Positions 33,324-64,000 of a stretch of DNA of 64,000 nt are shown piece by piece. Position 1 is the stretch's first letter; every line of letters begins with the position of its first letter. The notes beneath the pieces are model-generated. The model saw only the letters and a program-made list of their open reading frames with translations, ran no database searches and was not told where the DNA came from. The translations under genes and the position numbers were made by a program. The DNA is from Tubulanus polymorphus (Eukaryota > Animalia > Nemertea), in assembly GCF_964204645.1 (NCBI RefSeq), contig NC_134034.1:7476914-7540913 (forward strand), read 5' to 3'.

Positions 33324-33352
33324 TCAAATTTTAATAAAAATATGTATTATAA

Positions 33353-33708: not shown

Positions 33709-33724
33709 AAAATATGTAAAATAA

Positions 33725-34480: not shown

Positions 34481-34496
34481 TTTTTTCACTATATAG

Positions 34497-34830: not shown

Positions 34831-34844
34831 TTTTTGATAAATAA

Positions 34845-35070: not shown

Positions 35071-35088
35071 ATTTTTTTTGCTAAATAA

Positions 35089-35483: not shown

Positions 35484-35511
35484 TAATTATCTATTATTTT
35501 TTGTTAAATAA

Positions 35512-35946
35512 ATGGATGATAAAGTTAATAATATTGATATTATTCCTCATGATATAAATAAAACTAAATTAAAAACATATTTAGAAAAACAAATATTAGA
35601 ATTTGAAAGTGACTTAAAGATAAAAAAGAAAAAATATTTAAAAAGTAGAATTATATATTATCTTATTATAAGTGGTTCGGTTACAATTAGTTCTGTAATA
35701 ACATTTCTAGCAATATTCAGTCCATTAACACCTTTAGCTATATCAATTGGTGTATTAGGATTAAGTTCAAGTGTTTTAACCGGTATAAGTTCAAAATTAA
35801 ATATAAAAAGAAATAAAGAAAAAATTAAAACTAATATAAAAGAAATTAATAAATTAAAGAATACACTAGATTATATAATAAGTTTAAATGGCCATATAAC
35901 AGTTGAAGAACAAGATAAATTATTAAAAGAATTGATAAATTATTAA
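35512..35946 (+). CDS. Two-TM membrane protein flanked by basic coiled coils
   Basis: Two adjacent hydrophobic stretches in an intact 144-aa ORF. Confidence 0.7.
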   Translation: MDDKVNNIDIIPHDINKTKLKTYLEKQILEFESDLKIKKKKYLKSRIIYYLIISGSVTISSVITFLAIFSPLTPLAISIGVLGLSSSVLTGISSKLNIKRNKEKIKTNIKEINKLKNTLDYIISLNGHITVEEQDKLLKELINY

Positions 35947-35962
35947 TTTTTTAATTATATAA

Positions 35963-37346: not shown

Positions 37347-37362
37347 TTTTTATAAGATATAA

Positions 37363-38370: not shown

Positions 38371-38436
38371 TTATTAGTTATAAGTTATTATTTAAATAAG
38401 AAGGTATCACAATACCATCATTTTTTTATAATGTAA

Positions 38437-39903: not shown

Positions 39904-39923
39904 TTAATTTTTTTGTTTAATAA

Positions 39924-41172: not shown

Positions 41173-41205
41173 AATTTTTAACTTTAATAAAAATATATAT
41201 AATAA

Positions 41206-42387
41206 ATGGAAGGTGGAATATATGAAATACAAACTCCAAGTGAAATGATAACAGATATATATTATATATTACCGTATGATGAATACTGTAAGTATTTTGG
41301 AGATTACTTTAATCAATTCAAATATAGAATAAGTAAAATAAAAGATAATATTGAAACTAAAATAGAAAATAAAATTGAAACTAAAATAGAAGGTAAGAAT
41401 GATATTGAATATAAAATAGAAGATAATATTGAAACTAAAATAGAAGATAGTAATAATATTGAAACTATAATAGAAGATGTAACAGCATCTACATCTTATA
41501 ATATACCCTCTACATATGATATTGAATCAAAAAAGACAAATGAAAAATATTGTGACGTATGTAAACAGTATAAAAGTTATAAGAATTGGGCAACTCATCT
41601 TAATTCACTCAAGCATAAGAAAAATAAGAATAAGACTATAAATGAATTGAATAATGATAGTGAAATTGATAATGATAATGTTAAAGAAGATAAATATTGT
41701 GAAGAATGTGATAAATATATAAGTCGTAGTAATTTTTCAAAGCATAAATTAACACAAATACATTTGGATAATATAGAAAGAAATATATGTGAAAAGTGTA
41801 ATGTTGTTGTATTACCTAAAGATAGAATTAAACATGATAATTCTTTTGAACATACAATAAAAGCTGCTGATTCAAATAACCTTTATAGAGTACCAACTGT
41901 ATTTTTTGATATCGAAAATAATTATCATAGGAAATTATATAGATCAATTTTTATCGATTATGCAAGAAATAATCCAAAACAAGTATTATCAGATATTGAA
42001 ACTGGTCGGACGCATATAAAAATTGATCTATATAATTATTGGGGTATACATTATTTCATAAAATTTAAAAATATAGATTTTTTAACAGAATTGAAAAAAG
42101 TTGCTGCTAATGATAATATAAGTGATAACTTTGATGAAATAATTCAATACTACAGTTATGAAGATTTTTTACAGGATGTTATAAATAAAATAAGAAATGA
42201 TGCAAAAAATAAATATAAAAATATAAGTGAAGACAAATTAAACCAATACATTTATTTAACTTATGAATTGTTTGCTAAGGGTTTGAATAGTATTGGTTAT
42301 CATACTAAACTATTAGGCGAAAGAAAATCACAAGAATTAAAAGATGCATGGCTCAAATTGTTTTCAGAATTAGAATCAGAAAAGTAA
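41206..42387 (+). CDS. Multi-zinc-finger (C2H2/U1-like) accessory protein with IETKIE repeats
   Basis: Three CxxC...H.....H fingers in an intact 393-aa ORF. Confidence 0.75.
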   Translation: MEGGIYEIQTPSEMITDIYYILPYDEYCKYFGDYFNQFKYRISKIKDNIETKIENKIETKIEGKNDIEYKIEDNIETKIEDSNNIETIIEDVTASTSYNIPSTYDIESKKTNEKYCDVCKQYKSYKNWATHLNSLKHKKNKNKTINELNNDSEIDNDNVKEDKYCEECDKYISRSNFSKHKLTQIHLDNIERNICEKCNVVVLPKDRIKHDNSFEHTIKAADSNNLYRVPTVFFDIENNYHRKLYRSIFIDYARNNPKQVLSDIETGRTHIKIDLYNYWGIHYFIKFKNIDFLTELKKVAANDNISDNFDEIIQYYSYEDFLQDVINKIRNDAKNKYKNISEDKLNQYIYLTYELFAKGLNSIGYHTKLLGERKSQELKDAWLKLFSELESEK

Positions 42388-42404
42388 TTTAAAATATGAA
42401 TATA

Positions 42405-43012
42405 ATACCCCCTTGTGTCTTTATTATCTTTAGTAGGCTTAGTACTTTTAGTACATAAAGAATAAATCTTTATTTTATTAGTAGTGAATAAAATTATCTT
42501 TAAAACTACTAAACTACTAAAGACAATAAAGACATAAATATATATATATTACTGTTTCAATAATTATATTTATTCATCTGATGGATTTTATATATTACTG
42601 TTTCAATAATTAAATCTATTTATGGCGCATATTTATTATATATTACTGTTTTAATAATGATAAAAATCATAGATTTATCATATATAAAAATTATTTATAT
42701 ATCTATTTTTCTAAGTACTAATAAAATAAAGATTTATTCTTTATGTACTAAAAGTACTAAAAGTACTAACGATAATAAAGACATAACAAACACATATAGA
42801 TGTAATAAATATCATAGAATTATCTATCTCACAGATTTATTATATATATTTGATTCAGTAATGATAAATCTATGTGTGTTTGTTATGTCTTTATTATCTT
42901 TATTATCTTTAGTAGTTTAGTAGTTCTATTTTATTTTTAAAGTATTAATAATATGAAGATTTATTCTTTATGTACTAAAAGTACTAAAGATAATAGAGAC
43001 ATAAGGGGGTAT
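42405..43012. repeat. Inverted-repeat cluster between convergent gene arms of B
   Basis: ATACCCCCTTRTGTCTYTATTATCTTTAGTA arms at both ends, plus further internal inverted copies (e.g. 42721-42786). Confidence 0.75.
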
Positions 43013-43062
43013 CAGGTATTAGGGTATCTAATAGGGTATCTAATACATAGATATATAAATAG

Positions 43063-43674
43063 TTATTTTATAAATTTATATTCATAGGGAAATTGTAGTC
43101 TGAGTAATAATTTTGAACCTTTTTTATTCTTTAATTTATTCATATATTCATCATGTAATTCAGTAGGTATAATTTGATTTTCTTCCAATGATTGTTGCAT
43201 AGATTTTTTATCTTTCTTATAAAATAAAACTAGAAATCTTATATTCTCCCTAAAGTCTTTAACAATTGAATTATATTTTTGATTTAAAACCCATGTTGAT
43301 ATCCCAAAATGTCTCCCAGAGAAAGCTAGATAACATAACTCACTTTCTCTAACTTTTGAATCATGTAAATTAGCGCAATCATCTACAATGAATAATGTAT
43401 TTGATCCTTAATAAGTATCAATTGCTATTTTAATGCAATTATCTAAATTTTCTTTTACTGTTTTAGGATCTAATATAATAAACTTTTTTATCTTAACTAT
43501 ATCTCTATTATATGTTTTATTCATTTCATAAGTAGGACAGAATAATATTATATTATCAAAATGATTCTTATAAATAGTTTCTAACAAGTCTAATATGAAA
43601 TGTGTTTTACCACAGTTGGTTACTCCAGTAACTAACATATTATGCGGTTCGAATATAAATAAATCTTTATTCAT
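43063..43674 (-). pseudogene. A32/FtsK-HerA packaging ATPase, copy B
   Basis: GVTNCGKT, FIVDDC, SGRHF motifs. Single premature TAA at 43408-43410. Confidence 0.9.
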
Positions 43675-44779
43675 TTATTCTTTTAATTTTACTAGATATA
43701 ATCCATTCATTAAATTTATCATCATATCATTTATATTTCACCAAAGAATACTTTTTCCCTTTAAGAGTTTTTGTTTTCAATACTTTTTCTATTTTGTATT
43801 CTATTTCATCTGGATTTGGTACAAGTGATAATTCTTGTTCATAGAAATAACCTAATATTTCTTCATCTTTTAGATCTTCTAATTTATAAACAAATGGTTT
43901 AGTTAATATTATCTTTTTAATCTTGAATATTTCTTCTGTAAAATTTGGGGTATAACCTTTATAAAAGGTTTTTCTATATTTAGATATTCTTACGTGTTGT
44001 CCAATTTTGAATCTAGGTTCACCGAAATCATGTGTAACAAATGCTCCATATAAATTATTCCAAACTATTTCCGAATTATCTTCTTTTCTAGCGTGTATAG
44101 GTTTCATATTTATAGAACTATGTTTAGAATTATTGTAACCTTTCACTAAATCATCTAATACATCGATATATTTATATGTTTCATTAGCAGTAAAATATTT
44201 CCACATTCTAGTTTTCAATGTTTTATTAAATCTTTCTATAATAGATGCTTTTTTATCTGAGTGTGTTGAAAAATAATCTACATCGTTATCAGATAATAGT
44301 TTTTTGAAATGTTTGTTATAGAATTCCTTACCTTCATCAAATTGTATCTTATCTGGAATAGCTTCTTTAAATATAGATTTAAAAGCATTTGTCACTCCTA
44401 TTCCAGTTTTATTTTTGATTGGAATTGACCATGCGTATCTACTGAATATGTCTATAACATTCAGTATCCAGAAATATCCTTTGTTGTATTCTTCTATGTT
44501 CTTCATGTCAATTAAATCAGCTTGCCAATGTTGATCGATATATGAAACCATAACTTTTCATGTTAAATAAGTTTTATCCATTTTCTTGTGGATTTGATAT
44601 GTTGGTTGATTTTGTAACCATGATTTTAATTCGCTATATTTTATATCACCGTGTGGGTGCCGTACGGCACCATTTTCATTATTAGATTTAATTTTATTCC
44701 ATAATTCTGAAACGTTAGAATATGATACTTCACTTTCTGGGTTATAATATAAATCTCTTAAATATTGTTCTTTTTTCAT
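43667..44779 (-). pseudogene. rve integrase with chromodomain, copy B (two in-frame TGA)
   Basis: WQADLID, FDEGKEF, IIERFNKTLK motifs. TGA at 44558-44560 and 43727-43729. Confidence 0.92.
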
Positions 44780-44785
44780 TCTATT

Positions 44786-45154
44786 TTAATCCATTAATAT
44801 TAATCTTGGTTTATTTTCAATGACTTTATCATTTGACTTATTTGGTATGATAGGTTTATTGTCATTGGAATCATTATTGTTATAATCAGATTTATACTTA
44901 TATTTATATATTACACCGGAGAATATAATAACTGTTACTAATCCAATTGTAATATATAATTTATAATTACTTCCAGCATTAGAAGAATCAGATGGATTAT
45001 TATTTGAATCAATATCAGATAAAGTCTGTGATTCATTTATATCAATTAATTTCTTTTTCTTAGCTTTTTTTAATTCTGAAGATCTTTTACCTAATTCTCT
45101 TGCCCATTTAATTTGTTTCTCGGATCTAGCCTTTTTCTTAACTCCATCACTCAT
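44786..45154 (-). CDS. Basic N-terminus, single-TM protein
   Basis: Intact ORF conserved in A, B and C. Confidence 0.75.
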   Translation of the reverse strand: MSDGVKKKARSEKQIKWARELGKRSSELKKAKKKKLIDINESQTLSDIDSNNNPSDSSNAGSNYKLYITIGLVTVIIFSGVIYKYKYKSDYNNNDSNDNKPIIPNKSNDKVIENKPRLILMD

Positions 45155-45749
45155 TTATTTTAGTTAATTTTTGTTCTGATTCATTTTCTGTTTCAGCGTT
45201 TGGTTGTAGTACATCTGTTTCGTTCTTACCTGATTTATATTCCATAGGCTTAATGTTCGAAAATGTTATGACGCCAGTAGAAATTAATGTCATAACCGAT
45301 CCTAATTGAAATGAAGCATAACCAACCCATTTTTGTAATTCAGTCATAACTAAATAGTCATTTTTCAAATCACTATATAATTTATTTTCATCATCAATTG
45401 GTATTAACTGGTTACATAACTTAGAATAATATTTGACAATACCATCTGAAATAGAATCATTTATTCTAGCTAATCTAGCTTCTTCATAAATCTTAAAATA
45501 TTTTATTACTTTATCTGGTTTCATAGAGTCTAGTTCTTGAAAAGTAATGATTCTATTTAAAAACTCATTAGTTTTTCCACCGGCAATCAATAGTTCTATA
45601 TGATGCTTACAATATAAATAGTATTCATAATCTATATTGTTATTAACTTGAATAGAATTAGAAACAACTGTATCTTTATTATCACTTATACCCAAATCAT
45701 CTAATGTTTTTTCAATATCAATACTATTCTTACTCGATTTCTTTGACAT
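45147..45749 (-). CDS. Conserved helical Polinton protein with C-terminal hydrophobic segment
   Basis: Intact 200-aa ORF conserved in A, B and C. Confidence 0.75.
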   Translation of the reverse strand: MSKKSSKNSIDIEKTLDDLGISDNKDTVVSNSIQVNNNIDYEYYLYCKHHIELLIAGGKTNEFLNRIITFQELDSMKPDKVIKYFKIYEEARLARINDSISDGIVKYYSKLCNQLIPIDDENKLYSDLKNDYLVMTELQKWVGYASFQLGSVMTLISTGVITFSNIKPMEYKSGKNETDVLQPNAETENESEQKLTKINE

Positions 45750-46926
45750 TTATATTAGAGAAATTTAATAAGAAAAATATAATAAGTATTCTTCAAATGA
45801 TACTAGATAGTTAAAGTTAAAGAACTCGATATTGACTACTGATACTAGCTATTTGAGTTTAAAGAATTTCTATTTGAATCTATTCAAAATATAAAGTATT
45901 CTCTTTTGAAAAGAAAGTATTAAAAATATAATAGAATTCACTAGATAGTTGAAGTTATTGTTTTTTTATTATATTTTATTTAAATTAGGATTTAGATTAT
46001 CTCACTACTATTGTTTATCTATTAGGAGCAGTAATTATAACTGTCCAGATAAGTCATTTCGGATTCTTGATAATAAATCCTAAAACTGAAAATAAATTCA
46101 AAGAAACGACTGGTGGAAATACTATTTCATAAACACACGTATATTTTATTCTACAATCATTATCGATTTCCACATTCCAAGCCGCTCCTGAGAGGAGCGG
46201 TAAGGTATGCGTGGAATGCAGGAATCAATAAAGTACAATACAACATCTGTCACTGTGTGTCATTAACAACAGCTTAATGACGCAATTGAAATTCCGGCAA
46301 ACGTAATGCATTGAAAGCCTATACAGTGAGGCTAAACTGCTACAATCTCATGAGTTGAAATATCCATAATTTCTGATTCCACATCCATCCATCTTCACTT
46401 TCTTGGTTCAAATAGCAATGGTCTTCTTGTTACGCGTAGCATTTTGTTATCTAAAAGATAAATATCTAGCGTAGAATAAAACTAACTTGAAGTTGTAGTT
46501 TTCAAATAAGATTAATACACTTACACATAACCATTTGTGGCGCATCTTACCAGGATAAGTTTTACATGTTTAACGTTTCACAACGCCTTAATAACAACAA
46601 AAACAGTACTTACATTTATAACTGTAAACTCCTAAAATTGTGTTTATAGAGAGAATATCCTATACGTTCCTATGCTTATGTGCTGCGCGTTTATAACTGC
46701 CAGTTATTCACTAGCTAAACACCGTCTGGTGCAACAGATGTTCCTTCTTTTGTAATATAATTGATTAATCCTTTTCAACTGAAATAGCACGTTCGATCAA
46801 TATTCAAATGAGGTGCACCCTATTCAACTGAATATGAAATGCGGCACAGATGTTTTTGTAAACAACCTAATATAATTACATACAGGCGGTTTGACATAGA
46901 TCGAGAGTAACCGGTTTTCTAAGCGT

Positions 46927-47568
46927 TTAACATTCAACGTATTTTTCTTTATGTGTTGAGTTCCATAATTCAACAAATGTCTTTGCTTTATCCAGTTGAT
47001 CTAAATATAACTGTATATTTAGTTTATTAGATTTAATAATGTTTTCCTTCTTTTCTAAAGGTCTTAAATTTCTCCAGTTCCAGATTAGCTTCTTATTATA
47101 ATCATCACTCATGTCAAATTTAGAAATAGGCAACACGTGATCAATATGAAAGTATTCACCATAATTATCTATATTCATTTTATCATCGAATTGAAATATA
47201 ATCCATGATTTAAGAAATTTATCTGTACAACCCAACAAATTAGATTTAGTGTTTCTGAATCTGTTTCTTTGTTGAATAATTGTGTTAATCTAGATCTTAA
47301 GCATTGTTTCAATCTAAAATTAAGATCTGTTTGATATCTTTCTCTCATATATTCTGCCATATAATAATTATAATGTTCTATATTATCTTCTCGGTATTGT
47401 TTGGTATATAGTTTTACAGCAATATTGAAAACCATCTTTGCTAATCTTACGCTTACTAAATTCTGTTAATGATTTATCTAATTCACATTTAGAACACTTC
47501 TTGTAATATATATTTATAACACCAGCGTTATTTGTAATATTGATAGTTTGTGGTTGTTCTGATTCCAT
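46927..47568 (-). pseudogene. HNH endonuclease, copy B
   Basis: Three frameshifted ORFs; KKCSKC..YCCK and FHIDHVLP..NWRNLRPL..KEN motifs. Confidence 0.85.
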
Positions 47569-48246
47569 TTATTATACATATTTTTTACTAAATTGGTTAA
47601 TATTTTAGAATCCTCTTCCATTTCTTCGACCAACGTCATCCTTTTTCATTCCTCGCTGCTTTTGATTAGTCGTTTCGATTCCTTTATATCTAAATCATAC
47701 CACTGGGCTAAACCGCGCATTCAGGCGCGCTTTTGCTTAATGCGCATGCGTTAATCATAATTATATATTCATTCTATAAATTCTGTAAAAAAGAAACAAC
47801 ACATGCGTTACATGCGTCACATGCGGCCATTGATGTCCGGTTTTGCTTAATGCACATGTGTTAATCATAATTATATATTCATCCTGTAAATAGAAACAGC
47901 TGAACACAGAAAATTCAAACGCATTCATGTCTGCATAGTAACAGCTGTAACAGCTGAGAATTTATAGATTTATTCCATAGCTCTTTACATGGAATGTATA
48001 TAGGCTCAAATAGAATCATGTTCTAGTATATACAGCTATGCATTTTTTAAATATATTTTATTTGAATTCTATTTGATATCTCACTACTTTTGTTTATCTA
48101 TTAAGAGCAGTAATTATAACTGTCCAGATAAGTCATTTCGGATCCTTGATATCAAATTCCTCAACGTATTGTTCATTATTTGGATCATTGTTCCATTGAT
48201 CAATAAATTTCTTTGCCTTTGTTAACTGTTCTGAATATAACTGTGA

Positions 48247-48708
48247 ATATTCTAATTTCAATTTATTCTCTAAATGTGTTTTAGTTTTATTGTGTCTTGA
48301 TTTTTGGGATTTATCTATATTGATATTACATGTTGAACAGTAGTACTAATTTGCTTCCATTTTAATACTAAATTTTTTATTAAAATTGATTTTAGAAGTT
48401 ATTCATTTATATTTTATTCATATATATGAATATTTTAAGAGTAATAGGGAATATCTTGTTTCATATCAAAGGTCGAAAGGGCTAGTGAGTAAAAAATGAA
48501 AAATATGAAAATAATAATAATTTCTATTTGAATTAGGAGTGAAACTCATATAAAATGAAAAATAAATTCGAGTGTGCGAGAATTATTTTTCATTTTATAT
48601 GAGTTTCGCTACTAATTCAAATAGAAATTGTTATTATTTTCATATTTTTCATTTTTTATGAGCTCGACCTTTCGACCTTTGGTATGAAACAAGATATTCC
48701 CTATTACT
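48247..48708 (-). repeat. Right TIR of B (462 bp) including a 269-bp terminal palindrome (48440-48708)
   Basis: Arms pair around loop TTCGAGTGTGCGAGAA centred at ~48574. Confidence 0.93.
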
Positions 48709-49917
48709 CTGGTGAGTCCACTAGACCAGCCGTTGAGAGTCGAGACTGGCCAGTTTTCGCTAACCGTCAGGGCAGTATGCGGCACTGTCTTTTTGAAGCC
48801 ATAGTCTGGGGTCCTTCCCTGAAAATTTGTTCAATTTATTCTGAGGGCTTTTTGGCTATCTTTCTTTTCTGACATCTTTCATGAAAAGGGCTAATGGCTG
48901 AATCTGAATAACTTTCATAATCGGAGAATCCAATTTAAGATCATTCTTATCAATTATCATGGCCAGTTTTAAAACTGTTTATTGACAAAACTACAGGAAC
49001 CACATAAATAATAAATCTTCAGCAAAACACAACAGCTCTTACATTTGTAAAGATGAGAGATCCATGGAAATATCAAGTAACATTTTTTTAGACAGGGAAT
49101 TAGCGGAACACCGGAACGTTGCTTGTATGGTGCGTTTGCACCCGTCGCAAAAAACGTCGTGATAAACGAAATCAGCTGGACTAGGGCCAGGAGCTGAGAG
49201 TGATACAATGGAACTCCATTCTGATATTTAATGAATAATTCATTCACTAAATTTATGTTATCTTTAGTATTTTTAATTCATGTCCATGTTTCAATTCATT
49301 CGTTGAAATCATAGTACACTAAACAGATTCCGCGTGTGTCGGACTTTTTTTTAAACTCTTTGGTAATCGGCATTCGTAATATACATACATCTATCATTCT
49401 TCATCGAAAACCCTAGATCGAACGCGAAGTTTAAACCCTTGACTAGCGCGATTCTTAGCACCACCAATTTGAAGGGGCCATGGCTAACTCTTTTTGAGGG
49501 ATTTTTGTACACTCAAAAATGGATTTTGGAATTTGAGGCGTTTTTGGTGGATTTAGGGGCTGTAGCCCCGTATTTGGAGCCAACTCGAATCACCGGACCA
49601 TCGGTGTCTCACACTAAGAGTGGCCCACTGACCGTAGCGAGAGGCCGGTCCCCGGTAGCGGTTGATCGAATATTTTTCGTTTCAAATGAAACGTTTTTCG
49701 CATATCGATATTCATAGTTAATGTATACGCCACTGCCTGCGCTCGTGTCGTAGTATACGCCGATGTTGAAAAATATACACTGCGGTGGCGCTAGCGGGTG
49801 GACACCCGTACTATAAAACAAGTCGTATCTCGTATGTCATATGTCGTATCTCGTATGTTGCATCTCATATCTCGTATGTTATATCTCATATCTCGTCTGA
49901 GGTCTTCCATAGAATAT

Positions 49918-50360
49918 CGGTTCTATGAACACCTGTTTCGAAGCTATCCCAAAAACTGCTCCACTCCAAAAACGTTACCAGAAAATTTCGGAAGTTGTAA
50001 AACTGGTAGTTTAATTGGCAAAGTTCTGGGATTTGTTGAACTGAACGAGGGCTGTAAACTTTCACCTTTACCATTTGTATACTGCAAAACTTTGCATTTA
50101 GTTTCAGCGACGGAACGTGCATAGTCGTCGTGTGTCATGAATTCTTTCTCAATTTCATCGTCTCCGGCGAGGAGTGATACAATTTCGTAGTGGCACGATG
50201 TTAATTCTGATAATTTTTCGTCGACATATTTTGAATGATCAATGAGTGCCTGGTAATCGGTCGTGCAGGCAGATATCAAAGCGTTAATGTCATTCACGTA
50301 CCTTGTTATGACCGAACGTAACCCACGACGAGTTCCAGTAAATCTCATCAAATCCTCCAT
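49918..50360 (-). pseudogene. Bel2 gag N-terminus
   Basis: KLPVLQLPKFSGN...W..FWDSF motif; continues across the GAATAT TSD into 28263. Confidence 0.85.
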
Positions 50361-50789
50361 GATTCTTTTCTTAGGCTCCGAGGGACCAATTTTATGTCAG
50401 GAAGACATAAATAATAATACAATATAATTCGTGGCGGGAAAATATTCCCGACACTAACATATCGGGATCCCTGTGGTTTCTATCACTCAGCCTTACGAGT
50501 AATTGAGGTCTACGACTACTGCATTCAAGAGTGAATAATATACCATCAACTGGACATTCATTAAAGGATATAAAATTCAAATTTTTATAATTTTACAAAA
50601 TCCTTTCTTGAATTTTTGAAGTTTTGAAGTTCTTAATATACTAAAGTCAAGTAGAAGTATGGTAAAATAGAAGGTACCGGTACCATGTACGGCGGTAGTA
50701 ACACAGACTACTCTGTACTGCGCATAACTATCAAAATCAATCAGGCTGAGGGTCTATGACATTTCAGACGTAGTCTAACACCTATTTTA

Positions 50790-51174
50790 TTTATTGAATT
50801 ATCTGACTTCATTTTTATTTTATTAGAACTATTACTTTTTAAAAATTTAATATCAAATCCAGCATCACTACCTAATTGGACTCGAGCTCTTCTATTAATT
50901 TCTTGCGCTAATGTTTCTAAATTATATAATCCTATAATCCTGGTGTTAGAATAAGACTAACCCATTTTTGTACTTTTAATATAAACTGCAGAGACTCCAT
51001 GTTCAATAGTTTTATTCGATATATTGTAAAATGAGTTACATAAACTTATATATACTAATTTTAAATCTACACAATTTTCAAATTCTCTATCTAATTGTAC
51101 TAGTAAATTATGTGATTTATAATTTGTAACTTTTCTGGAATCAACAAATATTCTATATTTTTTAATTCAACCAT
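50790..51174 (-). pseudogene. Penton-like gene fragment of old Polinton D
   Basis: MVELK..RIFVDSRKVTNYKSHNLLVQLDREF matches 33725. Confidence 0.75.
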
Positions 51175-51229
51175 TATCTTTAACACAAAAAATTACCTCG
51201 AACAACTAAAAAATAATTTTAATAAACTT

Positions 51230-52470
51230 TTCCCTTAATAAATAGAAGAGAAGATACCATGCGAAATTTGTGGTAAATTGCAAGCTAAAAGTCACATAGC
51301 TAGACATATGAATAAACATGGTGAAAATTATAAACCCAACAAAATAAACTGCCCAAATTGTAATACAACATTCTCTAGAAATTATTTCAAAAAACATTCA
51401 GAGAAGTGTAAAAACAACGACTTAATAGTTAATGTTGATAGTAACGAAAGTAATAATAACTCTGTTGAAGTTGAACCTGAAATTATTTGGAAAAAAACCT
51501 TTCTTTTTCTATTATCAGAATAATATAAAAGATCATTTCTGTGAGCATTGTCGAATAAAATATTGAAACATAAATTTGAAAAAGAATTTGATGAAAGAAA
51601 AAAATAATCTATTAGAAAAAATAAAATAAGAGAAAACGTTACCAGATAATAAAGAAACACTTGAAAAGTTCGAAAAACAATATAATGAATTAGCAAGAAA
51701 AACATATTATTGTAAATATTGTACCTTGATTATTACAACAAGTAATTCAAATCTACATAATAAAACATAAAGAAAACGTAGGAAAATACCAAGAACTTAA
51801 CGAACATCTATCACCAAGATTTGATAGAAAAAATGCCCACAATGTATTTATGAGTACTTAAGACAAGAAGATTCTGTGGTATTTTGTAATGAATGTGGAT
51901 GGCAAATGAATTTATGGGGTGACGAAAAAATTAAAGATTTTCTCATACAGCCAAAATTAAAATATCTAGATGAAATTTTTAAAATATTTTCTATAGAAGA
52001 TCATACACCAGAATATAAGCAATGGCTTGAAAAAATGAAAATGATAGAAAATAAAAATGGTAAAATAACTATGAAATATATAATAAAAAGAATTATTCCG
52101 TCAACATGTAACACAAAAGAAAAGAAAATGTATTTATATTTATTATTTAACGATTATCATAAAAAACCTAAATTAACAGAAGAAGATATGGAAAATATAA
52201 AAGAAATATATCAAAATATCATGCGGTTAATAAAATAACAGATTCAATTAATTATGAATTCTTTTTGAATAAGATTGTAAATTTTTTAAACATCGATATA
52301 ATAATTCCATTTGATGAATTAACTAACAAAAAGAAACAAAAAGAGAGCGAGATGAAATGTGGTACAATATAGACCTTTATTTAAATGAGAAAAATGAAAT
52401 GGAAGAACCTTAACAATTCAATGAAAATGAAGAAGCCAATAGTGATTTCGAATATGATGATATTGATTTT
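51230..52470 (+). pseudogene. Decayed zinc-finger accessory ORFs of Polinton D
   Basis: CEIC..H...H, CPNC, CEHC and CNEC motifs in AT-rich broken frames. Confidence 0.5.
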
Positions 52471-52475
52471 ATGTT

Positions 52476-53230
52476 TTAATAACCATAAGGTAATGTTTTT
52501 ATTCCATCATCCAAAATATATCTTTTATTGTCGAATGGATTTAAGCTAGTTTTTTCAACTTCATTAATGTACATCTCGTGATCTTCTGATCTTAAATAAT
52601 TCATTTTATGTTTCATTACTATTGTGTTATATAAATACTTTATATGATCTTGAAATTCTATATGTTTATCAACCACATGCTTTGTTATTCCTTTTAACTT
52701 TTTTGCTTCGCGATCTTTTGTTCTGTGACTATACATTTTACTTCTTATCCCAACAAATTCAATCATTTCATCACCTCCTAATTCATCTTTAAATTTACCA
52801 GGAATTTTCTTATTTTCATTGCTAAATAATTCACGATCTTTTGGATAATTGCTTAAGTCAAAATGATGTTTTAATGTTTTTAAGTCTTTTGTTATGTCAT
52901 TAGTCTTGATTTTTAGTATGTAACTGTCGGTATTTTTCTTGGATTAATGGATTTGGATTAATAATTTAGATTATTTTTTAATAATTCTTGTTTTAAACTT
53001 TTGATTCTTTTTTAATAATTCTTGTTTTAAACTTTATATTTTCAGGATAATCTAAATCAACTACAAAGCAATAACGAATTGGAGCATCATCTTCTAAACT
53101 CATAATTGCGCTTTCCCAAATAGTTTTATCATCATTTTCAACCTCTGTTAATATATAATTTTTATATGGTTGGGGTTGCATCATTGCCCAACCATATAAA
53201 TTATTGGCGTCAATATATGATAATTTATAA
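52476..53230 (-). pseudogene. pPolB fragments of Polinton D
   Basis: YIDANNLYGWAM, DSY, PGKFKDE and SLNPFDNKRY motifs; internal deletion. Confidence 0.88.
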
Positions 53231-53734
53231 AGGCACTGTCGAGCCGTAAACATCGGAAATTTGGCTCCGTTCAATTAGTAGCCATGTTGTGTTTTCTTTC
53301 CGACATTTCTCTCTTCTTTTTGAGGAAGAGCTATCGAATCATTTCCTCTCTTCTCCACAATCAATTTCAAAGTCAATTTTATGAATTCATCGCAGAAAAG
53401 TATCAGGTGATTATCGATAGCCTACTACGGAAAACACAGTTGACAAACAGTGTTAGGCCTGTGCCGGTTGGTGCGTACTGGGACTAAATATACTGTTTGG
53501 TCAGTTGGTTCGGTTGTGAAGTGTGGAATCTAAGGAAGCCTACCGGGGTATGCCTGCAGTTTAGGTGGCTCAGAGGAGCATGTTTATTAGGTAAAATCAT
53601 GGAAATGGAGAATGTTGATTTTGTGACACATAAATAAAGTCTCATTGTCATTGAATTGAATTTAGCTTATTAGCGCCACAAAATCGTGTACATAGACTAG
53701 TAAGTGTAACTCTGCCTGATACCTTACTGTGTTA

Positions 53735-53921
53735 TAGTAGACTTTGATTTTAGTGTAGACATCGTGGACAGCGTCAGCGTGAATAGGTGTATGTAATGGG
53801 GCTAAAGTAGACTTTGATATTAGTGTAGACATCGTGGACAGCGTCAGCGTGAATGGGTGTATGTACGGGGCTATAGTACACTTTGATTTTAGTGTAGACA
53901 TCGTGGACAGCGTCAGCGTGA
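53735..53921. repeat. Tandem repeat, 69-70 bp unit x ~2.7
   Basis: ACTTTGATWTTAGTGTAGACATCGTGGACAGCGTCAGCGTGA at 53741, 53811 and 53880. Confidence 0.9.
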
Positions 53922-54313
53922 TCGAACGGTCAGTGTACTGTACTGGGTTATAGAAGACCGCTTCTGTCATCTTCGACTCACTGACCATTTGTCGATAACC
54001 CACTAATTTTTTACAGCAGGATCGTGTGTTGTAGAACCCTTACTGTGGTCAAAGTTGTAGGTCGAAGGATATTCCGTGTAAGGTATAGAATAAACCAGTT
54101 GTAACATAACATTCGAACTTCCCCTTCCGTACTGTACTTTGTAATTTATGTAAGAACACTTATCGAAATTTCGTTGCATGATTTCAGTTCCGAATGTCAT
54201 CAGGGGATTAACAGTTATAGAAACCACTGTCAAAGAATGGACAAGTTGCCTTTTAACAATCAAGTGCACATATTTATTTTGAAGTAAAAATTAGAAAATA
54301 GCTATATACATCG

Positions 54314-56265
54314 TTATCTTTTCTTTTTAGAAGCTCCTCCAACGGCAGCGCTCGCTTTCTGGCGTTTCTGCCTGTGCCGGGTTCCACAGCTGGATGAAGG
54401 TTGTGGTTCGACGGTTTGGGTCGGTTGCGGGTCCTGGGTTTCCTTCCGTTCTTCCAGAGGTTGTTTAACATCCTGCGTAACTTCATTTCCGTACAAATCG
54501 GCTAATAAATGCGCATGCGGATGGTGCGCTGTAGCGATTTGTTTTAGTGATTGCTCAGTATTTCCGAAGTTGTTGAAACGTTCTCTGTACCGATCGTGGT
54601 TAAAGTTTGTATTTAATACAGCGGCGTGGGTAGCATCGAAACTGTCGGGGTGTGGCTTGTAGAATACCTCGCGAAATGTTCGGCCGCGTTTTAACCTTAC
54701 CCACTTCCCAAAGCACATCTGTTCACACATGATCGACAATTTGACTGCAATGAGAAAGGTATTTAACATGAATATTAACAGAATCTATTCTGAATTGATT
54801 AGCATGGTGTATGAAAACATTTGCTTACTTTTAAGTGTGAGCGCTGTACTACCTCGAATTCTCTTCTGTATAGCTCTTACAGGTATAATCGGGCCGTCAC
54901 TTTCCAAAATGACATTAACCACCTTCTGTTGGTATGTAAAAACACGAGGTGCATTGATGGTGGCCTTGGAAAGGGAAGATACTGCCTGAAAGTAAATGAA
55001 ACTGTTAGTTTAGCAACTTAAAAAATCACTGACAACAAAAAGGTGCATACATATTTGTGTGAGTATATACCTCTGTGAACACTGCCTTTTGCTTTATAGA
55101 CCCGTGCAGTAATGACGTTGCAACGCTCCACATCTGTTCATTAATGACTAGTGGAATGTCAACTCCAGTTTGTGCCGAACAAAACACATGAAGCACTGCT
55201 GCAAGTTTAACCACGTGCATCGGGTCTTTCGTGGACATCAGCGATGCCTCCATTTTCGGAGTTTCCGTTTCAGTATCTACACCGTCTGAAATAATGTAAC
55301 GTAACACGTTAGATTGCCTGCAAATTGTATCAATAAATAACGTGAACTGTCATTAAAGAAAGAATTGTACTTACCGTCTGATGAGTCGAATGCATATTTA
55401 GCAGCCATATATGCAGCAAAGTTGTTTTTGAGGGTAGTGTACATTGTCGATGCTGCTGCATCGAGGGTGTAAACCCTCGGCCGGCTGTGTGTATTGTATA
55501 TCATATCGTATATATCATTAATAACATCAGCTTTATAAAGAGCAGCGTTTTCGTTGTTTATTTCGGCCGCAAAATATTTTGGCTTGCACACTATGCAAAT
55601 CAACCGGTCATAAAAACAATCTGCCGTTCCTTGAATCTGCACCAATTCAGTCAGATAAGTGTCTGGTTGAGTTATGATGTGCATGGAGATTTGTCAAATC
55701 CACGTTGTCCTGATGATAGATTAACGGTATCTCCTTCGCCCCCTCCCCATAGTTTACAAAGTAGAGCTTGCTCAGACTCCCCTTTGCTTTGTTTTTGGTT
55801 GATTGCTTTAAGGATTCGTCCTCCTTCGTCTGATGTAGTAAAGCCATAACCGCCGGAACGCTGTTGGTGACTGTGAATACCTGTATTAAGAAAATATATA
55901 CACATCATAAATGAATACAAGATCCATCGAATCGTTCGATACTGTGCGAACATGCTGCATTCACCAATTTACCTGCTGTAGAGTACGTCTCGATTTGCAG
56001 ACTCGTGTTTCACAGCTTGAAAAGTATTAAATGCCGGTTTCATTAACTTGTCGAAGGCAATACTTTTGCCCGCCCCCGATGCTGCAACTGTTGTCATATA
56101 TATATTCGGTGACGTCGACAGGTGTGGTCCAACTTCAATCGTTGTATTGGGCCCCATTAATGCAGCTGTGGCGGATATAATTACCGACAAACTTAATGCC
56201 TTGCTGACGTTAAAAGCCCGTTCGAAAACTTCTAGAAAGTGCAGAGTTTCATCCGGCAGAGTGTC
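54314..56265 (-). pseudogene. DUF3987/YfjI-like P-loop ATPase/helicase with probable C-terminal winged helix; four introns; 5' end cut by Polinton C
   Basis: PNIY..VAASGAGKS Walker A, TSDEG Walker B, LCKLW.G, TQP, FYDRL and KLAAVLH motifs. GT-AG introns at 55881-55972, 55286-55374, 54986-55070 and 54745-54828. About two frameshifts. Confidence 0.72.
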
Positions 56266-56534
56266 AGTAATAGGGAATATCTTGTTTCATACCAAAGGTC
56301 GAAAGGTCGAGCTCATAAAAAATGAAAAATATGAAAATAATAACAATTTCTATTTGAATTAGTAGCGAAACTCATATAAAATGAAAAATAATTCTCGCAC
56401 ACTCGAATTTATTTTTCATTTTATATGAGTTTCACTCCTAATTCAAATAGAAATTATTATTATTTTCATATTTTTCATTTTTTACTCACTAGCCCTTTCA
56501 ACCTTTGATATGAAACAAGATATTCCCTATTACT
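56266..56534. repeat. 269-bp terminal palindrome of C
   Basis: One visible difference from the reverse complement of 48440-48708. Confidence 0.93.
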
Positions 56535-56622
56535 CTTAAAATATTCATATATATGAATAAAATATAAATGAATAACTTCTAAAATCAATTTTAATAAAAA
56601 TTTTAGTATTAAAATGGAAGCA

Positions 56623-58862
56623 AACAAGAGCCCCAAGGGGCACAATGGCCAGCCTGTCAGATTTGCTTTTTATAAATGATGTAATCTGTGGGTTATATTT
56701 ATCAATATACACTCCCTGCTCAATATCATTTACATAGTAAAATCGTGTGTTAACACAGACAGCAGGAACGAATGTAATATAGAAATACTAAGTTATTGTA
56801 TTGTTCAACGCCCCCTGGTGGCCATAAAAAAAACCAATGAGCTTGAAACTCACCTCGATATCATAGAACATGTCATGAGCTACAACTTTCCAATTGATTA
56901 TAGTAGCAAAATATGCTTAAGTATCAATTATGATGTGGAAAAACTTTTTTTCCACCTACGAATTAGTACTGATGACCCCAAGATGGCTGCCAAGTGCGTC
57001 ATAATTGCCTGGTCAAAAATACCCTCTCGGATTTAAAAGATCCCTTTCCAAAGAATACCCATTACAAATTTCAATGAAACATGGCGCACCATTAGAAAGC
57101 TACAGTACTCAGAATTCAGGCCAAAATTGACATTTTTGGGAACAAAAAAGGTCACAGTACGGCCATCTCGAGTCCGATCGACTCAATTTTTCTCATGCCG
57201 ATGGGCCCTCGGGGGATACAAATATATACGAATGATCAAGGTTATTGATAAAAGTGTCTTCAAAATTTCCCTCGAAAACTTCAAAAATTTGTAAAAAGTG
57301 CTGATTTTGGCGAACAACAATGGCTGCCAGTCGGCCATCTTGAATCTGACAGGGCCAGTTTTTGGCCTGAAGATGTGTCTAGGGTAGATACACGTATAAA
57401 ACAAATATCAAGACATTACCTTGAAGCGTCTTCAAAACTTTGGAACTCTCACGAACTATCTAGATGGTTATCTCTCGACCTCAATAGCTTCAAGACCCAT
57501 CTCAAAACAACTTTGTTCCATGCAGCATACCATTAACTCTCGGAAAGCGAATTGTATTTAACATTTTTTGGCAGAATAAAATTTGATTGAATTTGCAATT
57601 CGGGCACATGGCTAATTAGCATATCAAGGTCATACACCCGATTTGGTAAAACCTTTTTTTCGCGAACCTTGCGCAATTGTCAAGGATGAATTTTCTGTAG
57701 AGCAAATAAAAATTCCTCCCAAACACCAAATCAACTAAAGACTTCATAGAAATCGATCTTGAAATACAATTTTAAATCTTAAAATAAAACCCGGAAGTAA
57801 AACAGTAGACGATACCGCGGATTCACGTGAACACCTGATTTCTGTAAACGAAATGTTGGTTGTGACAAAATTGTTCAGACGGTTTTAGGTGGTAATAAGT
57901 ACGGAAACGTAACGACCATGGTCGACTTATTCGATGAACTCAGGCCTATGTGATATCCAAATTTTGACTTTTTTATTCTCCAGACCTCCCTGATATAGAA
58001 ATAAAAAATTTTGGTGGTACGAAAGTGCAATCACAGCGCCGACGGGGACAGAGCCGTGTCAGAGATCGGCGGAGTGAAAATTGAGGTGGACGAACACGAA
58101 GAAGTAGGCTATTGCGCTACTTGAATCACGAAAACTCCTGGCGCGGCCCCGACGCTTTTCGTTGATTAAGTAATACAAATATCATGCAATGGGTTTTCAC
58201 AATCTACCGCTGGTATTTACCGGATTTCAATATCACTCCAAAATTCAAAGAAACCTCGAAATATCGAACCGGAACACTTCCGGTAGATATCCGCGGCTGC
58301 CCAACCGGGAAACTTATTTGTTTCAATAGATATTGATAGGATCCATCATTTTCACCCGTCAAGGGATTCGAACCCACTAAGCTAAAGCCATGCCAGAATC
58401 GGGTCGGGCCAATCACAGCGCTTGTAACAAACCACATTAGGCTTCTGTGGAATTTCCCAGTAAATGGGCCAATCAGCGAACACGTAGCGAACGCGGAAGT
58501 ATTGTCGCGTGTTGATACATGACGTCATGCGCAAAAGCGCCAGTAATGAAATCGCGATAATTCACGTGAACAGCTGCTGATATTTTCGGATAAACCAATC
58601 ACAGGGAAGACACAACTTCCTGATTGGCTGATAAAAATTGAAATTTTCCCGATTTAACTTTCGTGAAAAATGCAGAAAACATTTTTATGAGACCCTATTT
58701 CAAAATTCTGCTCGCTACGATTCCGAGAATGGATTACGCTTAAATACGTGATTTGTTCGAATATGCCCTCACTTGGCAAGCAAAAGAGCCTTTTGTGTGG
58801 AAACCATGTCATTTAAATTCGCTCCATTTGTATAGTAATAGGCTCAGCCTACGGCTGGCCTA
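56623..58862 (-). mobile_element. Non-autonomous Helentron/HINE inserted in the TIR ORF of C
   Basis: Minus strand: 5' TAGGCCAGCCGTAGGCTGAGCCTA hairpin, 3' subTIR GGCTGGCC, stem-loop GCCCC-TT-GGGGC and TCTTGTT end. Removing it restores ATGGAAGCAAATAAGTAC; no TSD. Confidence 0.75.
57436..57595 (+). mobile_element. 3' end fragment of a CR1/L2-type LINE
   Basis: LWNS...SFKTHLKTTLF..AYH* followed by a short UTR, AATAAA and a TTGA-like tail. Confidence 0.6.
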
Positions 58863-59315
58863 ATAAGTACTACTGTCCAACATGTAATATCAATATAGAT
58901 AAATCCCAAAAAAGCAAGACACAATAAAACTAAAACACATTTAGAGAATAAATTGAAACTAGAATATTTACAGTTATATTCAGAACAGTTAACAAAGGCA
59001 AAGAAATTTATTGATCAATGGAACAATGATCCAAATAATGAACAATACGTTGAGGAATTTGATATCAAGGATATGATTTAGATATTTCATGTCGGTTGTT
59101 TCTATTTACAAAATTATATATAATTATGATTAGCGCATGCGCATTAAGCAAAACCGCGCACGAATGCGCGGTTTTGCCCAGTGGTATTATTTAGATATAA
59201 AGGAATCGAAACAATTTATCAAAAGCAGCGAGGAATGAAAAAGGATGACGTTGGTTGAAGAAATGGAAGAGGATTCTAAAATATTAACCAATTTAGTAAA
59301 AAATACGTATAATAA

Positions 59316-59973
59316 ATGGAATCAGAACAACCACAAATTATCAATATTACAAATAACACTGGTGTTATAAATATATATTACAAGAAGTGTTCTAAATGTG
59401 AATTAGATAAATTAGCTTTAACAGAATTTAGTAAGCGTAAGATTAGCAAAGATGGTTTTCAATATTGCTGTAAAACTATATACCAAACAATACCGAGAAG
59501 ATAATAGAGAAGCTTACAATGATTATATGACAGAATATATGAGAGTAAGATATCAAACAGATCTTAATTTTAGATTGAAACAATGTTTAAGATCTAGATT
59601 AACACAATTATTCAACAAAGAAACGCATTCAGAAACACTATCTAATCTATTGGGTTGTACAGATGAATTCTTAAAATCATGGATTATATATCAATTCGAT
59701 GATAAAATGAATATAGATAATTATGGTGAATACTTTCATATTGATCACGTGTTGCCGATTTCTAAATTTGACATGAATGATGAATACAATAAAAAACTTA
59801 TTTGGAATTGGAAGAATCTAAGACCTTTAGAAAAGAAGGAAAACATAATTAAATCCAATAAACTAGATTTACAGTTATATTTAGATCAACTGGATAAAGC
59901 AAAGACATTTGTTGAATTATGGAATAGTATTTCACAGAATCAACCGCATTCTGAGGTTTTGATCAGTGGTTAG
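59316..59973 (+). pseudogene. HNH endonuclease, copy C
   Basis: Two overlapping ORFs; FHIDHVLP...NLRPL..KEN motif. Confidence 0.85.
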
Positions 59974-60322
59974 AAAGCTGGCAATTCTATTTGAGCTTTG
60001 TATGTATATAATACATAGCTTTTGCTTACTACTAAAACATATATATTGCCAAATATATCATGTTTTCAATTCTAAAGAATTAATTAACTTCATCATAAAG
60101 AACATCTGTGCAGAAGTAATTAGTTTGGTCGAACATGCGCCACGTCGGCAGTTAGAAATCAACTTTCACATACATAGAACGTATTGGATATTCTCTCTCA
60201 AAACACAGTTTACAGTTCTAAATCTAAATGTAAGTACCTTTTTTTGTAGTTATTATGAATTAGGGAAACCTTTAAACATATTTAAGTACAGTAATTCATT
60301 TTCACGATATCTTTTAGATTAA

Positions 60323-60788
60323 AATGGAATACAGAGCAACCAGAAATTCCAAGCCAACCAACGGATGAGGAACCAGAAACGACGGATAGTGAAACTCAGG
60401 AATCAATAGAAATGGAGGATAGAACTCTCGTAATTGACGAACAAACTTCACAAAATTACAAGAACATTTGGATTATCATCAAGAAATGGTGAAAATTCTG
60501 AGTGATGTAATACATAATAAACAATTACCGCGCGAACTACAATTACCAAAATTACCAGCAACGCGACTTAAATTGCTGTTGGGACTCAAAGAATCGAAAA
60601 CTAAGAAAATGAGTGGAGATATCAGTGCCGGTTTTGAAAGAAAACTGAGAAGAGTAGGTAGATTAATAAAATATGAAAAATTCAAAATATTAGGATTAGC
60701 ATTTAGTGAAGTAGTTAGATATTTACCAGAAATTGAAGAAATGATTGGAAACAATCCAGTAATTAAAGAATTCTGGACAAAATTATAA
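60323..60788 (+). pseudogene. Variable accessory protein of C (internally deleted relative to A 18040-18769)
   Basis: LDYH......L..VI, LPKLP...LK.LLGLKE and IKEFW.KL motifs shared with A. Confidence 0.6.
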
Positions 60789-60881
60789 ATTATAACACTC
60801 TGTCTTTGTAATATAGATATCAAAAAATGTAATCTCGATTGTATATATCTGTTTAAATATTGTATTGTTTACTGTTAACAG

Positions 60882-61218
60882 TGTATTGCGCAATAACCGG
60901 TCCGATTGAACCGTTTTTCTATTGTTCTCCATTGTTCTATTATTGATCGTTGTTAATGGCGGCGGTTGTTCTGTATTGATTGTTTACGTGTGTAACTGTG
61001 TATTGCGCAATAACCGGTCCGATTGGACTGCTTTTCTATTGTTCTCCATTGTTCTACTATTGATCGTTGTTGACTGAAACAGCTGCTCAATATTGATTGG
61101 TTACAGTTCTATGTTTGAATGTTGTAGTTTACAGAATAAAAATATAACTTTGTATTGCGCAATAACCGGTCCGATTGGACCGCATTTCTATTGTTCTCCA
61201 TTGTTCTATTATCGATCG
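60882..61218. repeat. Three 68-bp direct repeats with 49- and 84-bp spacers
   Basis: TGTATTGCGCAATAACCGGTCCGATTG...GATCG at 60882, 60999 and 61151. Confidence 0.9.
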
Positions 61219-61627
61219 CTAAAATTTACATAATAAATATATGTGTTTATGAAATAATATTTCCACCAGTCGTTTCTTTGAATTTATTTTCAGCTTGAGG
61301 ATTTATTATCGAGAATCCGAAATGACTTATCTGAACAGTTATAGTTACCGCTCCTATAGATAGACAATAGTAGTGAGATATTAAATCCTAATTTAAATAA
61401 AAAGTATTTAAAAAACAATAACTTCAACTAGCTAGTGAATTCTATTATATTTTTAATATTTTCTTTTGGTAATTCTAATTGACACTAAATTGAATAGGTT
61501 TTGAATAGATTTGAATAGAAATTCTTTAACTTTAACTAACCTAGTCAATTTAGTATTTACCCAAAGAGATACTAGTATCATTTTATAATACTTATAATAT
61601 TTTTATTATTAAATTTCTCTAATATAA

Positions 61628-62236
61628 ATGTCAAAGAAATCGAGTAAGAATAGTATTGATATTGAAAAAACATTAGATGATTTGGGCATAAGTGATAATA
61701 AAGATACAGTTGTAACTAATTGTGCTCAAGTTAATTGTAATATAGATTATGAATACTATTTATATTGTAAGCATCATCTAGAACTATTGATTGCCGGTGG
61801 AAAAACTAAGGATTTCTTGGGGAAAATAATAACTTTTCAAGAATTAGATGCTATGAAACCCGATAAAGTAATAAAATATTTTAAGATTTATGAAGAAGCA
61901 AGATTAGCCTGAATAAATGATTCTATTTCAGATGGTATTGTCAAATGTTATTCTAAATTATGTAACCAGTTAATACCAATTGATGATGAAAATAAATTAT
62001 ATAGTGATTTGAAAAATGACTACTTAGTTATGACTGAATTACAAAAATGGGTTGGTTATGCTTCATTTCAATTAGGATCGGTTATGACATTAATTTCTAC
62101 TGGTGTCATAACATTTTCGAACATCAAGCCTATGGAATATAAATCAGGTAAGAATGAAACAGATGACGCTGTACTACAACCGAACGTCGAAACAGAAAAT
62201 GAATCAGAACAAAAATTAACTAAAATAAATGAGTGA
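61628..62236 (+). pseudogene. MSKKSSKNS protein, copy C
   Basis: One TGA at 61910-61912 where A has CGA and B has AGA. Confidence 0.8.
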
Positions 62237-62594
62237 TGGCGTTAAGAAAAAGGCTAGATCCGAGAAACAAATTAAATGGGCAAGAGAATTAGGTAAAAGA
62301 TCTGCAGAATTAAAAAAAGCTAAGAAAAAGAAATTAACTGATATAAATGAATCACAGACTTTATCTGATATTGATTCAAATAATAATCCATCTGATTCTT
62401 CTAATGCTGGAAGTAATTATAAATTATATATTTCAATTGGATTAGTAACAGTTATTATATTATCCGGTGTAATATATAAATTAAAATTCAAATCTGATGA
62501 TAATGATTCCGATGATAATAAACCTATCATACCAGAAAATAAGTCAAATCATAAAGTCATTGAAACTAAATCTAAATTATTATTAATGGATTAA
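62229..62594 (+). CDS. Basic N-terminus, single-TM protein, copy C
   Basis: Intact homologue of 44786..45154. Confidence 0.75.
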   Translation: MSDGVKKKARSEKQIKWARELGKRSAELKKAKKKKLTDINESQTLSDIDSNNNPSDSSNAGSNYKLYISIGLVTVIILSGVIYKLKFKSDDNDSDDNKPIIPENKSNHKVIETKSKLLLMD

Positions 62595-62600
62595 AATAAG

Positions 62601-63725
62601 ATGAAAAAAGAACAATATTTAAGAGATTTATATTATAACCCAGAGAGTGAAGTATCATATTCTATTGTTTCAGAATTATGGGATAGAATTAAATCTGATA
62701 ATGAAAATGGTGCCGTATGGCACCCACATGGTGATATAAAATATAGTGAACTAAGATTATGGTTACAAAATCAACCAACATATCAAATTCATAAGAAAAT
62801 GGATAAAACTTATTTAACATGAAAAGTTATGGTTTCATATATCGATCAACAATGGCAAGCAGATTTAATTGACATGAAGAACTTAGAAGAATACAACAAA
62901 GGATATTTCTGGATATTAAATGTTATAGACATATTCAGTAGATACGCATGGTCAATTCCAATAAAAAATAAAACTGGTATAGAAGTGACAAATGCTTTTA
63001 AATCTATATTTAAAGAAGCAATTCCAGATAAGATACAATTTGATGAAGGTAAGGAATTCTATAACAAACATTTCAAAAAACTATTATCTGATAACGATGT
63101 AGAATATTTTTCAACACACTCAGATAAAAAAGCATCTATTATAGAAAGATTTAATAAAACATTGAAAACTAGAATGTGGAAATATTTTACTGCTAATGAA
63201 ACATATAAATATATCGATGAGTCTATAAATATATTCGATGATTTGGTGAAAGGTTATAATAATTCTAAACATAGTTCTATAAATATGAAACCTATACAAG
63301 CTAGAAAAGAAGATAATTCAGAAATAGTTTGGAATAATTTATATGGAGCATTTGTTACACATGATTTCGGTGAACCTAAATTTAAAATTGGACAACACGT
63401 AAGAATATCTAAATATAGAAAAACATTTTATAAAGGTTATACTCCAAATTTTACTGAAGAAATATTCAAGATTAAAAAGATAATATTAACTAAACCATTT
63501 GTTTATAAATTAGAAGATTTAAAAGATGAAGAAATATTAGGTTATTTCTATGAACAAGAATTATCACTTGTACCAAATCCAGATGAAATAGAATACAAAA
63601 TAGAAAAAGTATTGAAAAGAAAAACTCTAAAAGGAAAAAAGTATTCTTTGGTGAAATATAAATGATATGATGATAAATTTAATGAATGGATTTTATCTAG
63701 TAAAATTAAAAGAATAAATGAATAC
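62601..63725 (+). pseudogene. rve integrase with chromodomain, copy C (two in-frame TGA)
   Basis: Same motifs and same two TGA positions (62820-62822, 63663-63665) as B. Confidence 0.9.
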
Positions 63726-64000
63726 AGATTTATTTATATTCGAACCGCATAATATGTTAGTTACTGGTGTAACCAATTGTGGTAAAACACATTTCATATT
63801 AGACTTGTTAGAAACTATTTATAAGAATCATTTTGATAATATAATATTATTCTGTCCTACTTATGAAATGAATAAAACATATAATAGAGATATAGTTAAG
63901 ATGAAAAAGTTTATTATATTAGATCCTAAAACAGTAAAAGAAAATTTAGATAATTGTATAAAAATAGCAATTGATACTTATAAAGGATCAAATACATTAT
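63718..64000 (+). CDS. Packaging ATPase, copy C (partial)
   Basis: MNTDLFIFEPHNMLVTGVTNCGKT, open to the window end. Has AAA where B has the premature stop. Confidence 0.88.
   Translation, partial: MNTDLFIFEPHNMLVTGVTNCGKTHFILDLLETIYKNHFDNIILFCPTYEMNKTYNRDIVKMKKFIILDPKTVKENLDNCIKIAIDTYKGSNTL

Follow-up and report, generated by a model that had tools for sequence, protein, structure and literature searches.

What does a spliced ATPase gene of the DUF3987 type do amid transposons, and does it belong to a mobile element or to its host? The question is raised by a minus-strand locus in the window, the stretch of 64,000 nucleotides of Tubulanus polymorphus DNA analyzed here. An earlier note on this DNA, made from the letters alone, had offered two origins: a horizontally acquired gene that had gained introns, or the replication gene of an undescribed element. 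Our analysis points to another reading, which we consider probable. The locus is a dead copy of a multi-copy, spliced animal DUF3987 gene, and this gene would serve a cut-and-paste DNA transposon as an accessory helicase and be no part of a self-replicating element.

Structure, lesions and surroundings of the window copy

The gene runs from 56265 to 54314 on the minus strand and comprises five exons and four introns (Table 1). All four introns are of the GT-AG type, and they are richer in AT (66-71%) than the exons (52-57%). This confirmed the five-exon structure with introns of 84-92 nt described in the earlier note, and the exon and intron limits are as placed there. An alternative intron 1 (84 nt, donor 55964) was rejected; it leaves an in-frame stop, whereas the 92-nt intron was chosen because it restores the YxxAG junction of the family. 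Walker A (SGAGKS, 56079-56062) is encoded by exon 1, and Walker B (SDEG, 55833-55822), a TQP motif (55672-55664) and a DRL motif (55609-55601) are encoded by exon 2. From AAA+ anatomy, we take TQP to be the sensor and DRL the arginine finger. The presence of these four motifs had been recognized before, but two frameshifts had been overlooked, and the motifs do not share one reading frame.

The first frameshift lies near 56010, and only in the shifted frame does exon 1 finish with the family's ETYxxAG junction; at the second, near 55690, other copies carry 13-15 extra letters. A contig from X2 (contig 14, 55921-56059), a sample that may be the source of the window, spans the first frameshift and is identical to the window, and this frameshift is therefore no assembly slip. 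With the insertion of Polinton C at 56265/56266, the copy carries three lesions and is dead. Inactivation by Polinton C had been proposed on the first inspection of the sequence; the insertion into the gene was borne out, but it is not the only lesion.

The letters AGTGTC directly precede the terminus of Polinton C (56266), which is the same in kind as the terminus of the complete Polinton B. In X6, 22 reads continue beyond 56265 and share a single sequence there that is not Polinton (agreement 0.99); Polinton C is therefore present in the window copy and absent from most others. The 30 letters beyond 56265 in these reads, when read by hand, were open in the frame of the gene and resembled the matching part of its relatives. 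By comparison with the starts of the relatives, the missing 5' part of the window copy amounts to only about 25-45 codons. Within Polinton C itself, the terminal repeat is split at 56625-58861 by a very high-copy insertion, with read depth of up to about 16,000 versus about 30 on the gene. A 183-aa frame of the same element (59422-59970) had no Pfam match at 1e-4 and contains a HIDH motif, which in our view resembles HNH endonucleases.

Pfam matches elsewhere in the window were all of mobile-element type or weak zinc-finger matches, and no host gene was detected there, in support of the transposon-only setting reported previously. The gene was ruled out as a Polinton/Maverick gene, as Polinton C is inserted into it and nothing in the complete Polinton B matched it. 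Further Polinton copies were located at 1-7300, 17300-21000, 50750-53230 and 56266-64000. A BEL/Pao retrotransposon (8259-15417) has end repeats that are 98% identical and long frames with few stops, and BEL/Pao remnants were also found at 25482-28418 and 49769-50396. A Harbinger-type pair (21843-24705) consists of DDE_Tnp_4 transposase pieces on the plus strand and a Myb/SANT frame on the minus strand.

Table 1. Features of the DUF3987 gene and its neighborhood, in window positions.
Feature	Position	Strand	Description
Exon 1	55973..56265	-	N-terminal helices and Walker A; 5' end truncated by Polinton C; frameshift near 56010
Intron 1	55881..55972	-	92 nt, phase 1; follows the YxxAG motif
Exon 2	55375..55880	-	Walker B, TQP (sensor-type) and DRL (arginine-finger-type); second frameshift, near 55690
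Intron 2	55286..55374	-	89 nt, phase 1
Exon 3	55071..55285	-	Lid helices of the AAA+ module; matched by mussel proteins (E about 8e-8)
Intron 3	54986..55070	-	85 nt, phase 0; L002 agrees in column and phase
Exon 4	54829..54985	-	Predicted winged helix, first half
Intron 4	54745..54828	-	84 nt, phase 1; L002 agrees in column and phase
Exon 5	54314..54744	-	Predicted winged helix, remainder; a conserved HHPH motif and a basic tail up to the stop codon
Polinton C	56266..64000	+	Inserted into the gene; extends past the window edge
AGTGTC	56260..56265	+	Expected 6-bp target duplication of Polinton C; one side only within the window
Polinton B	29027-48708		Complete but decayed; CTGGTG (6-bp target duplication) on both sides; polymerase, integrase and A32 ATPase matches
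70-bp tandem array	53733..53953	.	3' flank, common to other copies; joints differ among reads
Candidate element end	53230..53600	+	Insertion boundary in a Polinton polymerase remnant, then high-copy sequence reached by other gene copies

Family, predicted fold and shared introns

Exon 1 matched Pfam DUF3987 (PF13148) above the family cut-off (E 7.6e-8, 32.4 bits, cut-off 27), in support of the DUF3987/YfjI assignment made in the earlier note. The match of exon 2 was weak (E 0.0018), and four of the six exon pieces had no match in the Pfam scan. The full-length relative P0004 scored 83.9 bits for DUF3987 and had no other domain in Pfam. PHROGs gave only weak helicase matches, to exon 1 (E 0.004 and 0.007), and the nearest Atlas clusters were DUF3987 (score 0.97).

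When exon 1 was searched against 1.84 billion representative proteins, 25 matches were obtained, 24 of which carry Pfam DUF3987; the remaining one was a repetitive false match. Twenty clusters were looked up, and 17 of them had no name; the named ones were from Mytilus, Argopecten and Mercenaria, the closest named relatives being bivalve proteins. Full-length relatives were 29-38% identical to the window protein, and mussel proteins matched exons 1 to 5 in order. Mussel loci of the family include XP_071130400, XP_071169766, XP_076109844 and CAG2210289. The Walker A lysine, the Walker B glutamate, Q214 and R234 were invariant in 18 of 18 relatives, and the catalytic residues are predicted to be kept across the family. 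Four Mytilus edulis records named RAD54 or RAD54L (P0004, P0030, P0037 and P0046) are DUF3987 proteins, and a domain scan of one of them, P0004, showed no SNF2 domain; the DUF3987 assignment flags the RAD54 names in the mussel annotation as false.

The fold was modelled for the mussel relative P0037 (pLDDT 78.6), which stands in for the broken protein of the window. This structure prediction, suggested in the earlier note as a check, gave an MCM-like AAA+ fold followed by a C-terminal winged helix. The best solved-structure match of residues 46-391 was MCM (Z 14.6, rmsd 4.1, 272 aligned), and residues 410-487 matched winged helices, in agreement with the winged-helix tail suspected from the outset. 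Identity to MCM chains was 9-16%, and the N-terminal zinc-finger/OB domain of MCM is absent; in the relatives, no more than about 45 residues precede the AAA+ match. The model matched phage DUF3987 models at E 4e-15 and MCM at E 6e-7, values that come from different libraries, and its best viral fold matches include primase-helicases. The gene belongs to the DUF3987 (SF6, MCM-related) ATPases, and an AAA+ fold with a winged-helix tail is predicted for its product.

The relative L002, encoded on a metagenome contig and 29% identical, has introns at the same alignment column and in the same phase as introns 3 and 4 of the window gene. Its intron 2 has the same phase as that of the window gene and lies two columns off, in a variable loop where the acceptor was guessed; a phase-1 donor is found at the place of intron 2 in both L002 and the mussel-like L001. 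L002 has no intron 1 and has one intron that is absent from the window gene. In the genomic ORFs of three further relatives (P0002, P0005 and P0025), homology ends at the position of intron 1. Judged from these comparisons, the agreement of intron positions with the relatives exceeds chance, and the introns are real and old because positions and phases are shared with L002 and the three ORFs stop at intron 1. Since the positions are common to distant animal relatives, a recent, local horizontal acquisition, the first of the origins named above, is unlikely. The window protein fell into no supported group in a tree of 29 rows.

Animal relatives start about 25-45 residues ahead of the point at which the window copy is cut, and they have no fused primase. 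Related loci were limited to three short metagenome contigs (1.1-1.8 kb) out of 537 candidate stretches, with none found in viral contigs or prokaryotic genomes, and tblastn against 50,697 phage records gave no match to the gene family. A word-based search found no longer proteins containing exon 1, and a weak test for fused forms of 983-2805 aa found none.

Copies, selection and flanks

The 701 X6 reads on 53600-56288 comprised 107 at 99% identity or more, 191 at 95-99%, 316 at 90-95% and 87 lower, and the contig depth classes were about 3:1 to 4:1 in X1, X2 and X3 (X2 and X3 being one sample). These differing classes of read identity and contig depth point to several paralogues in this genome, unless the samples are pools. 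Another copy, seen in X1 and X6, is without 122 nt over 55872-55995, i.e., intron 1 and both exon edges; as both edges are lost, this is a deletion and no clean intron loss, and at least one more copy is broken. In X5, a run labelled as a different organism, a 257-nt contig at depth 2 is identical to the window copy at 54756-55012, and contamination or diet is a more likely source of it than transfer.

Selection was assessed on 31 coding sites among the best-supported rows listed (240 further rows lay outside, and the cut-off of 0.7 was set post hoc): 5 of the 21 changes private to the window copy were synonymous (22.6% expected if neutral), against 7 of the 10 sites at which the other copies differ from each other (P 0.002; Fisher 0.02). 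The private changes of the window copy thus look neutral, and the differences among the other, uninterrupted copies look selected. In mussel, a single cluster held 22 members, the full-length ones 98-99.6% identical. One annotation series places these full-length copies on five scaffolds that differ in length, and another places them on two chromosome-length records; the scaffold counts may include haplotigs. The family is dispersed and multi-copy with neutrally decaying copies, as expected of a cut-and-paste transposon, and the near-identical mussel copies on several scaffolds, taken with the pattern of the window copy, fit a transposon gene. The outcomes that the earlier note had set against its own proposal, a conventional host ATPase or a single-copy gene, did not appear.

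On the 3' side, 18 reads pass from the shared flank into high-copy sequence below 53603, and read depth climbs towards the insertion boundary at 53230. At that point a Polinton polymerase remnant is interrupted by the high-copy sequence; other copies of this remnant go on differently. The high-copy sequence may represent the end of the element or else a miniature element that has nothing to do with it, and its link to the gene is putative. Stretches of 23-55 letters of this end recur at 7539 and 7790 (with 53231), all on one strand and after AT-rich, TTAA-like sites, and no inverted partner was found within the window. The candidate end at 53230 opens with two purines behind a TTAA-like site, a start that PMC9587614 reports for Kolobok, and the motif shared by 7539, 7790 and 53231 possibly marks Kolobok-type ends. 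A Helitron 3' end near 53700 was rejected by eye, with no GC-rich hairpin and only 9-bp inverted matches, and no Pfam match to an HUH Rep with a fused PIF1 (SF1) helicase, as in Helitrons, was obtained in the gene, its relatives or the window frames.

Among the 45 frames of 45 aa or more at 48700-54320, downstream of the gene, none encoded a transposase, primase or recombinase, and the 132 frames elsewhere in the window gave only Polinton, BEL/Pao and Harbinger genes in this respect. The sole DDE_Tnp_4 matches lie 30 kb from the gene.

Alternative readings and comparison with known systems

As the accessory helicase of a cut-and-paste transposon, the intact product would form a ring on DNA, and this ring ATPase would unwind or remodel DNA at the element's ends or target. 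A separately encoded transposase would cut and join, a division of labor like that proposed for AcademH and KolobokH with their RecQ helicases, and it is by analogy with these that a pairing with a transposase may be supposed for this subfamily. The window copy would have inserted, decayed neutrally and then been hit by Polinton C, which would have displaced the first 25-45 codons, and probably the partner gene too, out of the window. More broadly, the gene may mark a member of an old, undescribed lineage of animal DNA transposons with its own phage-type, MCM-like ring helicase, used for self-copying or targeting; this member would have tandem repeats near its terminus and an end like that of Kolobok. 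This we put forward tentatively, as a serious possibility. Being dead and without 5' context in the window, the copy is a marker of the family and not its best specimen.

The points against a helper gene are the absence of a transposase from the 45 downstream frames and of an inverted partner for the 53230 end from the window, the low copy number, and the conserved introns and selection, which suit a host family too. The locus could then be a duplicated pseudogene in a repeat dump, one of a small family of host genes (or passive cargo) that derives anciently from prokaryotes or a transposon; the intron positions common to distant animals, the purifying selection among the other copies and the lack of a transposase in the 45 downstream frames would all agree with this. 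However, the mussel copies are young and dispersed, the copies here share a non-coding 3' flank with the tandem array and high-copy sequence, and the window contains no detected host gene, and we regard a host family as rather unlikely. A conventional host ATPase, RAD54 or an MCM paralogue, is extremely improbable and already largely refuted: the automatic RAD54/RAD54L name sits on several M. edulis members and MCM chains top the solved-structure fold searches, but P0004 has only DUF3987 in Pfam and no SNF2 domain, the low identity to MCM comes with the loss of its N-terminal domain, and phage DUF3987 models outscore MCM, albeit in different libraries.

The earlier proposal of a replication helicase in a self-copying element, in which a primase-helicase module would be combined with a recombinase or integrase, is unsupported so far, and we judge it quite improbable. 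Animal relatives begin too close to the cut point to carry a primase, no partner of the primase, polymerase or recombinase type was detected, viral contigs and phage records had no match, and the weak test for longer fused forms found none. On its side are the primase-helicases among the best viral fold matches, the position of the upstream side beyond the window, and the prokaryotic DUF3987 proteins, which are replicative helicases linked to primases in the available portions of PMC4889955 and PMC11724360. The accessory helicase of a cut-and-paste transposon is the reading that we retain.

No description of a eukaryotic DUF3987 gene or element was found in a literature search outside supplements, Repbase reports and subscription journals, including the accessible part of PMC12730594, and an animal branch of SF6 helicases with transposon-like behavior is apparently undescribed so far. 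The papers found to use the term DUF3987 appear to deal with prokaryotes or phages throughout. Beyond the host replisome, SF6 helicases have been described from phages and prokaryotic elements; according to PMC4889955, DUF3987 proteins belong to SF6, possess a winged helix and are often linked to primases, and the survey reported there found them in phages and haloviruses and in no eukaryotic viruses. A spliced animal branch, still amplifying in mussels, would give eukaryotic mobile DNA a further class of helicase, and intact natural mussel proteins could show whether a transposon-borne MCM mimic unwinds DNA, targets forks or drives replicative transposition. If real, a transposon lineage with an MCM-like helicase would be a eukaryotic counterpart of the AAA+-driven transposons of bacteria.

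The animal gene shares its Pfam family, Walker A and B motifs, MCM-like AAA+ fold and C-terminal winged helix with phage and bacterial DUF3987 proteins (PF13148, YfjI-like; e.g., AgaPH), and unlike them it is spliced and has no fused primase or PriCT domain. For the bacterial member AgaPH, 5'-3' helicase activity is reported in PMC11724360, and ATP-dependent unwinding as an oligomer has been shown only for this protein. MCM2-7, MCM8-9 and archaeal MCM are alike in fold, as the best solved-structure match to the mussel model; unlike them, the family is multi-copy and decaying, has no N-terminal zinc/OB domain and is only distantly similar in sequence. IstB, TnsC and MuB are AAA+ helpers of bacterial transposons in which an ATPase acts beside the transposase; the product here is of a different AAA+ clade, and none of the three was among the best 50 fold matches listed. 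The helicase of AcademH reportedly also belongs to SF2/RecQ. KolobokH carries a RecQ helicase according to the available text of PMC9587614 and PMC10045372. Unlike both, the helicase here would be a ring motor of the SF6 AAA+ type, and no transposase that goes with it was found in the window; AcademH and KolobokH are alike to it in their proposed logic, that of a DNA transposon with an accessory helicase.
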